IMG/VR virus record: IMGVR_UViG_3300032212_000044
Span: 1-41,901 of that record
From: a virus
Taxonomy: Duplodnaviria; Caudoviricetes
Strand: one strand, 5' to 3'
Length of the DNA: 41,901 bases
Part shown: positions 11,771 to 20,764 of the stretch, one piece after another
Layout: every line of letters begins with the position of its first letter
Numbering within the stretch: the first letter of the stretch is position 1
The notes under the pieces: generated by a model
What the model was told of the DNA's origin: nothing
Seen by the model: only the letters and a program-made list of their open reading frames with translations
Database searches by the model: none
Program-made: the position numbers and the translations under genes

Positions 11771-11900
11771 ATATCTAGCTCCTTTTTATGCTGTTTGATT
11801 TTTCTCTTAACATATAAATGAATACTTATGACAATAGCTGAAATAACTATTGTGAAAAATATAGGGATGATATATACGGGATTCATATATCTAGCTCCTT
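11765..11900. repeat. 20-bp exact direct repeat (RBS plus start)
   Basis: ATTCATATATCTAGCTCCTT at 11765-11784 and 11881-11900. Confidence 0.9.
11767..11886 (-). CDS. Small single-TM protein (39 aa)
   Basis: MNPVYIIPIFFTIVISAIVISIHLYVKRKIKQHKKELDI, RBS AAGGAG, bounded by a 20-bp direct repeat. Confidence 0.6.
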   Translation of the reverse strand: MNPVYIIPIFFTIVISAIVISIHLYVKRKIKQHKKELDI

Positions 11901-14582: not shown

Positions 14583-14604
14583 TAGTTATTCCTCTGTGTG
14601 TTGG

Positions 14605-14892
14605 CTAATCGCATGGATACATAACTAGATGTAAATCACTCTCAAGCTTGTTTATCCTGTTTTCTAAGAACTGGATATAGCCTGCTAACTTAAGATTCTC
14701 ATCACAACCATATTTAGCCGCTTTCCTATGCAGTTCTTCGTTCCGCTTGTTTTCCCATTCATTTTCTTTTTTTAGTCTGAACCTGTAAAGTTCGTCCCTA
14801 TGATCTTCAAACCCTTCTGTTTCTTCAATATCCCAGCAAGGATCATTCATCCAATTATTTTTTAGTTTGATAATTTCTTCATCTGTTGTCAC
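14605..14892 (-). CDS. Hypothetical phage protein
   Basis: 'LKNNWMNDPCWDIEETEGFE' motif, RBS AGGAG. Confidence 0.7.
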   Translation of the reverse strand: MTTDEEIIKLKNNWMNDPCWDIEETEGFEDHRDELYRFRLKKENEWENKRNEELHRKAAKYGCDENLKLAGYIQFLENRINKLESDLHLVMYPCD

Positions 14893-14927
14893 TTCTCTCT
14901 CCTAATTAATCTGTGTGTTGGCTAACC

Positions 14928-15257
14928 TTAATAGTAATATCCGCTTATAACTTCCATAGGCTTCATAAAATCAAGCCATTCATGCTCCAGCATTTTTCTT
15001 TCTTCACCACAGCCAGAACACCGCATTTTCGTATAGTATTTTGGCGCTGTGCAAGTCGGCTTAAAATTATGCGGCTCGCCATTCATACAGTCTGCTTTTT
15101 TGGCATCATAAGAAAATGAAATATAAGTTGTGAAGGCAAAGCTATTTTCACAATCACGGCATTGTTGCTCGTGAATTAAGCTTTCATCATATCCGTAGCC
15201 ATCATCATGATTTATCTCTTGCCATTCGCCACAATAAGGGCATTCAACGTCTTTCAC
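14928..15257 (-). CDS. Zinc-finger-like phage protein
   Basis: 'CPYCGEWQEINHDDGYGY..CRDC..CSGC'. Confidence 0.7.
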   Translation of the reverse strand: MKDVECPYCGEWQEINHDDGYGYDESLIHEQQCRDCENSFAFTTYISFSYDAKKADCMNGEPHNFKPTCTAPKYYTKMRCSGCGEERKMLEHEWLDFMKPMEVISGYYY

Positions 15258-15277
15258 TTCTCTCTCCTAATTAAGTA

Positions 15278-15406
15278 TGCAGAGCTGAGGGAATATTTAC
15301 GCTGATCCTATAGTCAGTAACCTTCAACTCTGCAAACATGGTGGCGATCCACTGGCCGCTTCGAGCCCACAGCTTGTACTTCGCCTGACTGCCAGTTTCA
15401 CACCAT
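15278..15406 (-). ncRNA. Two tandem stem-closed structured RNA domains (putative)
   Basis: TGCAGAG..CTCTGCA (15278-15334). ATGGTG..CACCAT with inner ACTGGC/GCCAGT (15338-15406). Confidence 0.4.
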
Positions 15407-15410
15407 AATA

Positions 15411-15495
15411 TGGTCGGGTAAGTCAGGGAGTTCCTCTTATGCTGCCGCCCTGACAGTTTCAGCAATTTTAACTGCGGCTATTCCGCCACTACCCG
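15411..15495 (-). ncRNA. tRNA-like element with a non-canonical core
   Basis: CGGGTAG/TTACCCG 7-bp acceptor followed by A and CCA. D-like arm GCGG-AATAG-CCGC and arm GTCAGGG/CCCTGAC. No TTC loop or standard anticodon loop. Confidence 0.5.
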
Positions 15496-15752
15496 TTAAT
15501 CTTTAAAATACCACCTATCTTTCTTGCAATCTTCTTCAAAAAACCTGAATTTACCTCGACTATTTCAGTAGTAGCTCTTTCAAATGACTCATTTAATCTT
15601 TGATAATCTTCAAAATCTATAAATGTGTAACTCACCCTTACAACATCATCATAAATTATAGGATCACTTGTAAATCTACCGCTTGTCTTTTTAAATATCT
15701 CAAGCCACTTATTAAAATCCTCTTTATTTATTGGCTCATTTGATACTTTCAT
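15489..15752 (-). CDS. Hypothetical protein
   Basis: 87 aa, TGATG-coupled. Confidence 0.65.
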   Translation of the reverse strand: MKVSNEPINKEDFNKWLEIFKKTSGRFTSDPIIYDDVVRVSYTFIDFEDYQRLNESFERATTEIVEVNSGFLKKIARKIGGILKING

Positions 15753-20472: not shown

Positions 20473-20501
20473 AGTAGTATCTCCTAATTAATTAAAATTC
20501 A

Positions 20502-20606
20502 GGCTACTTGATTGGTCGAACAGTGTGAGATATCATACTTATATCGGCTGCCATTGTGGCGGTTGGATACGTAACTTGCATTTACTGTTCAACCGGGTTG
20601 GTAGCC
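20502..20606 (-). promoter_or_regulatory. Long structured leader of the leftward early transcript
   Basis: GGCTAC/GTAGCC and GGTTGAACAGT/ACTGTTCGACC stems enclosing smaller hairpins. Confidence 0.45.
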
Positions 20607-20620
20607 CAGTCGATAACTCT

Positions 20621-20687: not shown

Positions 20688-20764
20688 CTGGGTGTAGCTC
20701 AGCTTGGTAGAGTAGGAGCTTTGGAAGCTCATTGTCGCAGGTTCAAATCCTGTCACCCAGACCA
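20688..20764 (+). tRNA. tRNA-Pro(TGG)
   Basis: Acceptor CTGGGTG/CACCCAG, D arm GCTC/GAGT, anticodon loop TTTGGAA, T arm GCAGG-TTCAAAT-CCTGT, A73 and encoded CCA. Confidence 0.93.

Follow-up and report, generated by a model that had tools for sequence, protein, structure and literature searches.

An 85-nucleotide stretch of phage DNA, read on the minus strand from position 15495 to 15411, is a real feature and very probably not a product of chance. Its sequence and relatives point to a genuine shell derived from a proline tRNA that is wrapped around an exchangeable interior. The window, by which the whole stretch of DNA analysed is meant, is a complete virus record of 41.9 kb (41,901 nucleotides). 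Its head module is of the podovirus type, with a portal protein 28% like that of PaP3/LUZ24, and it codes for a DnaB helicase and for one tRNA-Pro(UGG), called by ARAGORN at 20688-20764. The element, whose sequence is present as quoted in the preliminary description, lies about 0.7 kb past the helicase gene, amid small ORFs without assigned function. It is situated between ORFs in the middle of an operon, 5.2 kb from the tRNA-Pro gene and on the opposite strand. The G+C content is 51% over 15275-15495 and 40% genome-wide.

The predicted mature unit (15411-15495, minus strand) is delimited by its fold, by comparison with shuffled sequences and by a homologue on the related phage contig L026 (1234-1108). 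It is closed by an acceptor-like stem of 7 bp, one of them G-U. The 5' strand of this stem (15489-15495) starts with C1 and is identical in L026 and in two further relatives, L018 and L029. The 3' strand (15411-15421) carries U66, where L026 has C66, followed by G72, the discriminator A73 and an encoded CCA, so that the acceptor stem and ACCA end described earlier are borne out. Folded with about 100 nt of upstream and 200 nt of downstream sequence, six of the seven pairs reach probabilities of 0.94-0.99, and the G-U pair 0.39. A 3' arm of 7 bp with a 19-nt loop (15422-15454) stacks on the acceptor stem, which gives 14 bp in all, compared with 12 in a tRNA; when the 85-mer is folded alone, this arm has a probability of 0.99-1.0. 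Between the two lie a D-like arm of 4 bp with a 5-nt loop (15474-15486), whose register is uncertain in silico, and a weak arm 2 with its loop 2 (15455-15473) in the position of the anticodon arm. As noted before, a 7-nt anticodon loop and a TTC loop are both missing, and ARAGORN makes no call on the element even at a 70% threshold. The minimum free energy (MFE) is -29.6 kcal/mol (z -2.45), a value equalled by 4 of 200 shuffles. The four-arm layout first proposed holds for the acceptor stem and the 3' arm, but its exact form, at -24.2, lies 5.4 kcal/mol above the MFE, and its D register (probability 0.01) and arm 2 (about 0.15) are improbable in the ensemble. The two small inner arms of the window copy are thus uncertain in these models, although L026 favours the proposed D register.

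A scan of the genome for a 7-bp stem with C1-G72 and A-CCA matches the element and the tRNA-Pro gene only. With criteria that were fixed after the element had been seen, this strict pattern occurs 0.05 times per genome in 40 dinucleotide shuffles and in 0 of 2000 local shuffles, and 0.53 times per shuffled genome and in 10 of 2000 local shuffles when the C1-G72/A73 condition is dropped.

Relatives of the element were found by scanning metagenomes with its 5' 18-mer. The 21 loci obtained comprise the window's own contig, three family members (L018, L026 and L029), recognised by ATTAA before C1 together with a phage gene context, and 17 that were dropped. L026 harbours an intact homologue of 127 nt, which agrees with the window over its first 17 nt and at its 3' end, with G7-C66 in place of G7-U66. 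Its layout consists of the 7-bp acceptor stem, a D-like stem, a long arm, and a 5-bp stem with a 7-nt loop, followed by A73 and CCA. The 5-bp stem stacks on the acceptor and is T-arm-shaped, with a 12-bp geometry and a non-canonical loop. This copy folds better than any of 200 shuffles (z -3.71), and the matching 3' end arises in only 20 of 20000 shuffles of L026. Its interior is otherwise unlike that of the window, bar an identical 13-mer and the D-like stem. A homologue that keeps both ends around a different body supports the earlier view of the element as a non-decoding tRNA mimic.

The other two family members are incomplete. In L018, 16 nt at the 5' end are retained; a different hairpin follows, and the sequence runs into a gene without a CCA. 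In L029, whose phage is closely related to that of the window, about 21 nt remain, and a gap of about 200 nt takes in most of the element. The shell is therefore intact in two of the four readable family loci. Since L018 and L029 retain only the 5' part, the cassette is, to judge from these alleles, portable and dispensable. An A/U-rich leader (15496-15502), a predicted RNase P leader and cassette boundary, precedes C1; all 7 nt recur in L018, L026 and X1, and the last 5 in L029. X1 is a low-depth contig of 829 nt from one DNA sequencing run, aligned to window positions 15250-15502. The leader and the first 16 nt are identical in it (23/23), then come 105 other bases against 205 in the window, and its upstream DNA differs. 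The acceptor stems of the two intact copies differ by one one-sided change and no two-sided ones. L018 and L026 carry the assembly prefix of the window contig, which limits their independence and may make them close kin; the shared blocks may therefore reflect recent recombination and not selection. A MAFFT alignment of the four loci puts the 13-mer in the wrong place.

The ends of the element are of the bacterial tRNA-Pro type. The C1-G72 pair has been described as unique to bacterial tRNA-Pro (PMC2377447). When the two-end pattern of the element was searched in 151 genomes and 30 loci were fetched, ARAGORN found a tRNA at the match in 19, all of them Pro, and none in the remaining 11. C1 together with G72-A73-CCA occurred in none of 39 non-Pro tRNAs from the fetched loci and L114. 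A tRNA-Pro pattern gave no matches in three genomes. At position 13 of the D stem, which the search pattern left free, both intact copies have a G paired with C (G13-C22 in the window), whereas 19 of 20 tRNA-Pro genes have a C paired with G. Positions 8-15 suit tRNA-Leu about equally well (mean 10.0, compared with 10.5 for Pro, of the first 15), the Pro set having been chosen by the end pattern. The phage's own tRNA-Pro shares C1-G72 and A73, as the preliminary description had observed, but has other acceptor pairs at positions 2, 5 and 6, and is hence not the immediate donor of the shell.

The 13-nt motif (15430-15442, minus strand) reads as an Ala codon, a stop codon and a Shine-Dalgarno-like run, and is similar to gene junctions in this phage group that combine a stop with a Shine-Dalgarno sequence. 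An identity of 13 nt between the interiors of the window and L026 copies is reached in 0 of 2000 shuffles. Near-copies precede real start codons at window position 11790, at two sites in L026 and at one in L018, in a fuzzy search that also matches many coding positions. One possibility is that the motif is captured junction DNA and a recombination patch, an origin that would account for the L018 allele; the other is that it is cargo. The motif is mostly unpaired in the window ensemble and largely paired in that of L026, where its first three bases close the long arm by pairing with a complementary triplet that follows the D-like arm. In the window, the same triplet pairing would require a pseudoknot with the 3' arm, which ViennaRNA cannot score. 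Likewise, TGCTG (15464-15460) and CAGCA (15444-15440), the loop sequences pointed out earlier, are genuinely complementary over 5 bp, with a chance of 0.027 for loops so composed, and could pair only as such a pseudoknot. No loop target beyond chance was found in the 12-kb arm, and within their own contigs the complements of L026 and L018 do not exceed 7 nt. The best complement in the 12-kb arm extends over 11 nt (window 13939-13929, minus strand), involves the paired strand at element positions 67-77, and is equalled in 15 of 300 shuffles.

The surroundings of the element are variable. The upstream ORF of 87 amino acids (15489..15752, minus strand) belongs to no family, and a protein search yielded no viral relatives; a 41% identical relative in L018 ends before the element. 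The overlap of its stop codon with the 5' end of the element, noted previously, is real in the window but incidental, as the upstream stop lies 5, 9 and 5 nt before C1 in L018, L026 and L029, and the overlap is found in the window genome only among the four loci. The upstream neighbour genes differ between relatives. Downstream, on the same strand, follow hairpin 2 (15406-15338), with CCA paired in the MFE structure, and hairpin 3 (15334-15278), a long stem directly before the ribosome-binding site of the next gene. Both hairpins are missing from L026 and L029, and hairpin 2, given its absence from L026, does not belong to the conserved unit. A 7-nt stretch in hairpin 2 could compete for the 3' strand of the element's 3' arm. 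The idea that hairpin 2 duplicates the interior of the element was rejected, with 146 of 1000 shuffles as good; so was a 64-aa frame starting with TTG across the element, which lacks a ribosome-binding motif. The next ORF, a Cys-rich one of 109 amino acids (14928..15257, minus strand), gives a weak match, below the cut-off, to Lar restriction alleviation (17.5 vs 28.6 bits). Promoter-like sites do not exceed chance (14 found, 21 expected), and none of the 74 window ORFs scanned matches an integrase. Gene-junction motifs are repeated in the accessory region (14878-14909 and 15243-15274; 14588-14609 and 14905-14926), and also occur in L029 and X1; they are likely recombination boundaries of gene cassettes.

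Beyond these loci, searches for further copies returned none. Rfam gave no match over the element at gathering thresholds or at E up to 10, nor over L018, L026 and L029, in which ARAGORN likewise called no tRNA. A blastn search of 50,697 phage records, run at E limits of 1 and 10, returned only chance matches of 22-28 nt. Two scans of viral contigs yielded no loci, and others 62 and 7 that looked chance-like on inspection; with the acceptor strands alone, the single viral locus was a canonical tRNA-Pro and not a family member. A genome scan produced 14 loci, none of the element's family. In 401 genomes of one class, allowing 3 mismatches, 22 matches compared with 15 in the control, and in none of the 22 was a stem closed with a CCA. 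The element is absent from five related phage records reached via neighbouring proteins. Its region is contained in one DNA sequencing run, perhaps that of the source sample itself, and in no RNA run among the sequencing runs found. No description of such an RNA family was found in a literature search in which subscription and older papers were thinly covered.

Other tRNA-like RNAs are encoded in this phage group. A stretch of about 113 nt just before a tRNA gene is shared by the window (20500-20612, plus strand) and L008 (7075-6963, minus strand), at 76% identity. In L008, it has a 9-bp closing stem, C1-G72, A73 and CCA, and is followed by a tRNA-Met gene; in the window copy, compensating changes keep the closing stem, and the CCA end is lost. 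The pair shows seven two-sided changes that keep pairing, on a consensus fitted to the same two sequences, and neither Rfam nor the phage records contain a match. Together with the element, this makes two lineages with Pro-type ends in the group, which is suggestive (n=2). L017 (about 2518-2395, minus strand) has a tRNA-like stretch of about 120 nt, in which a long interior separates a D arm of the Leu type from a T-like arm; it receives no ARAGORN or Rfam call and is probably another lineage. In the related phage L007 (4542-4638, plus strand), a 97-nt tRNA-Phe is called that has an enlarged anticodon arm and a long variable arm.

A discrete processed RNA probably arises from the element. We tentatively favour, with somewhat less than even confidence, the reading that it is excised as an uncharged, CCA-ended small RNA that acts through its acceptor end, much like T4 RNA C. 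The leftward phage transcript would fold the acceptor stem, and host RNase P would cut before C1. By analogy, the element is a plausible RNase P substrate, as had been proposed: E. coli RNase P takes hairpin-like substrates without a T loop, including the P4 CI and P1/P7 C4 RNAs (PMC5499578), and the enzyme is described as using RCCA anchoring and a 12-bp ruler (PMC11143913). Host RNase E could then cut right after the CCA in one step, in the way that C1 of E. coli tRNA-Pro directs it to cut directly after CCA and avoids polyadenylation (PMC8860583). The product is probably uncharged, as it has no anticodon. An earlier suggestion of a synthetase ligand is correspondingly weak, given that recognition by bacterial ProRS involves the anticodon in addition to G72 and A73 (PMC2377447). 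That of an anticodon-nuclease decoy is not supported, as neither intact copy has an anticodon loop, and any decoy would have to work through the acceptor end. The least supported step of the scheme is that the RNA may be a decoy for host enzymes reading this end. Candidate targets would be CCA modifiers that select by acceptor stem, such as toxSAS/CapRel, with MenT also named; toxSAS toxins, which have been implicated in phage defence, are described as modifying the CCA end and selecting by acceptor stem (10.1101/2024.07.05.602228). No toxin specific for Pro acceptor stems was found in the literature search.

A role of the ends is favoured because they are mainly what both intact copies keep, and the shell model gains from the difference between their interiors, from the 12-bp RNase P geometry of L026, and from the unrelated L008 RNA that also ends in C1-G72, A73 and CCA. 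Several observations weaken it: only two of four loci are intact, and close relative L029 has lost most of the element; the window copy has a 14-bp stack without a T-like loop; the window counterpart of the L008 RNA lacks a CCA; the shared 13-mer is unnecessary for a role of the ends alone; and an RNase P cut in the window would take off the stop codon of the upstream gene. Overall, we are inclined to place function in the acceptor end and not in the interior with no more than tentative confidence.

In a different account, the element is a decaying tRNA-Pro relic into which gene-junction DNA was inserted, its blocks persisting as recombination patches in a hypervariable region and its RNA having no role. 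The loss of the 3' half in two of four loci fits this, as do the likeness of the 13-mer to real junctions, with recombination explaining the L018 allele, the confinement of homologues to three related contigs across all scans of the collections, and the lack of two-sided compensatory changes between the intact copies. However, both intact copies fold better than shuffles, a D-stem pair is flipped relative to tRNA-Pro, and the T-arm geometry of L026 comes with a sequence that resembles none of the commonest Pro T arms listed. Decay should not rebuild the middle into new stems while both ends stay perfect, and we regard a relic as unlikely. The shell may alternatively be a cleavage signal in cis, at which RNase P and RNase E split the leftward mRNA and thereby uncouple or stabilise the downstream accessory genes, leaving the RNA as a by-product. 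Such a signal would suit a mid-operon position on the strand opposite to the tRNA gene and 5.2 kb away from it, the chance-level promoter-like sites and the two long hairpins that follow in the window, and polycistronic mRNAs are among the substrates cited for RNase P (references of PMC11143913). It is nevertheless doubtful as well, since the hairpins are missing from L026, the neighbours differ in each relative, L018 and L029, judged by layout, would express their downstream genes without an intact shell, and cleavage needs neither the D-like arm nor the 13-nt motif.

A regulator in which the ends only mature or protect the RNA is rather improbable. Its interior would act as an antisense RNA like C4 or CI, or as a Shine-Dalgarno bait for ribosomes or an RNA-binding protein. 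This reading is favoured by the 13-mer, identical in both intact copies and mostly unpaired in the window, whose first bases close the long arm of L026, as a pseudoknot would in the window, and by C4 and CI as examples of phage RNAs that RNase P cleaves (PMC5499578). Against this stand the poor targets (the 11-nt complement that lies on a paired strand, and the 7 nt in the own contigs of L026 and L018), the largely paired 13-mer in the L026 ensemble and the lack of an Rfam match. Two further explanations are hardly credible. A miniature tmRNA is hinted at by short frames that end in an Ala codon and a stop, like a degradation tag (ETVRAAA in the window, DVATVPA in L026, both in the same frame relative to C1). 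In tmRNA, alanine identity is conferred by G3-U70, and the molecule is far larger than 85 nt; the acceptor of the element has G3-C70, ARAGORN and Rfam make no tmRNA call, and the Ala-stop end is accounted for by the gene-junction motif. Chance folding of a GC-rich intergenic stretch could appeal to the rate of the loose stem-plus-CCA scan, of which several matches in related genomes are probably spurious, but is contradicted by the strict scan and the Pro-type ends, and largely refuted by the L026 homologue.

Returning to the tRNA-Pro-derived shell, one shell with two interiors, together with half-deleted alleles, allows the question of whether function lies in the ends or in the interior to be asked directly. 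Should the ends act as decoys, the RNA would be a counter-defence directed at toxins that target CCA; should one-step maturation by RNase E be the reason why the Pro-type first pair is kept, these phages would exploit a processing shortcut of the host. A more speculative extension, which we consider rather unlikely, combines the two: the acceptor end of tRNA-Pro would be a reusable chassis, in which C1-G72 provides one-step maturation by RNase E and a clean, uncharged CCA end, while interiors are swapped by recombination in the manner of accessory genes and the resulting RNAs serve as counter-defences soaking up toxins that attack 3' ends.

In comparison with known systems, the element is not a tRNA, a tmRNA or a member of the C4/CI group on the features tested. 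With tRNA-Pro (RF00005), it shares C1-G72, A73, CCA, U8-G9, G10-C11-G12 and an A after the D stem, but its D loop is shrunken and without the GG pair, and there is no anticodon arm or TTC loop; the anticodon read by ProRS has no loop to sit in, either here or in L026. The C4 RNAs of P1/P7 and the CI RNA of P4 are likewise small RNAs of phages that lack a T loop and are released from an operon transcript by RNase P (PMC5499578), whose cut is predicted for the element as well. The element differs from them in having no Rfam match and no complementary operon sites nearby. YrlA (RF02553) is also a non-decoding RNA that mimics a tRNA. It imitates the D and T elbow, and its partner is Ro60; RF02553 does not match over the element, and no Ro-like PHROG match was obtained among the 74 ORFs, many of which are without a family. 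The preliminary description raised the possibility of an undescribed class of ncRNA. That claims too much: Rfam has no entry for the sequence family, but tRNA-like ends on odd bodies have long been known among the phage RNAs of T4. By analogy, the element appears most like RNA C and RNA D of that phage, the species 1 and 2 RNAs (rnaC 70908-71046, rnaD 71053-71171, NC_000866.4). These are small stable RNAs whose role is described as unexplained; like the element, they are phage-encoded, 85-140 nt long and have a tRNA-like 3' region on a non-tRNA body (PMC3014915, PMC9697503). A closing stem with a tRNA-type 3' end around a non-tRNA body is found in the element too. It differs in its T arm, its location and its sequence: the T arm of rnaC is canonical and its closing stem imperfect, whereas the element has a perfect Pro-type acceptor and no canonical T loop; rnaC lies in a tRNA cluster, whereas the element is an optional mid-operon cassette remote from the tRNA-Pro gene; and blastn against the phage records yielded no match between the element and rnaC or rnaD. 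It resembles the T4 RNAs in architecture, on an acceptor end that is of proline type.
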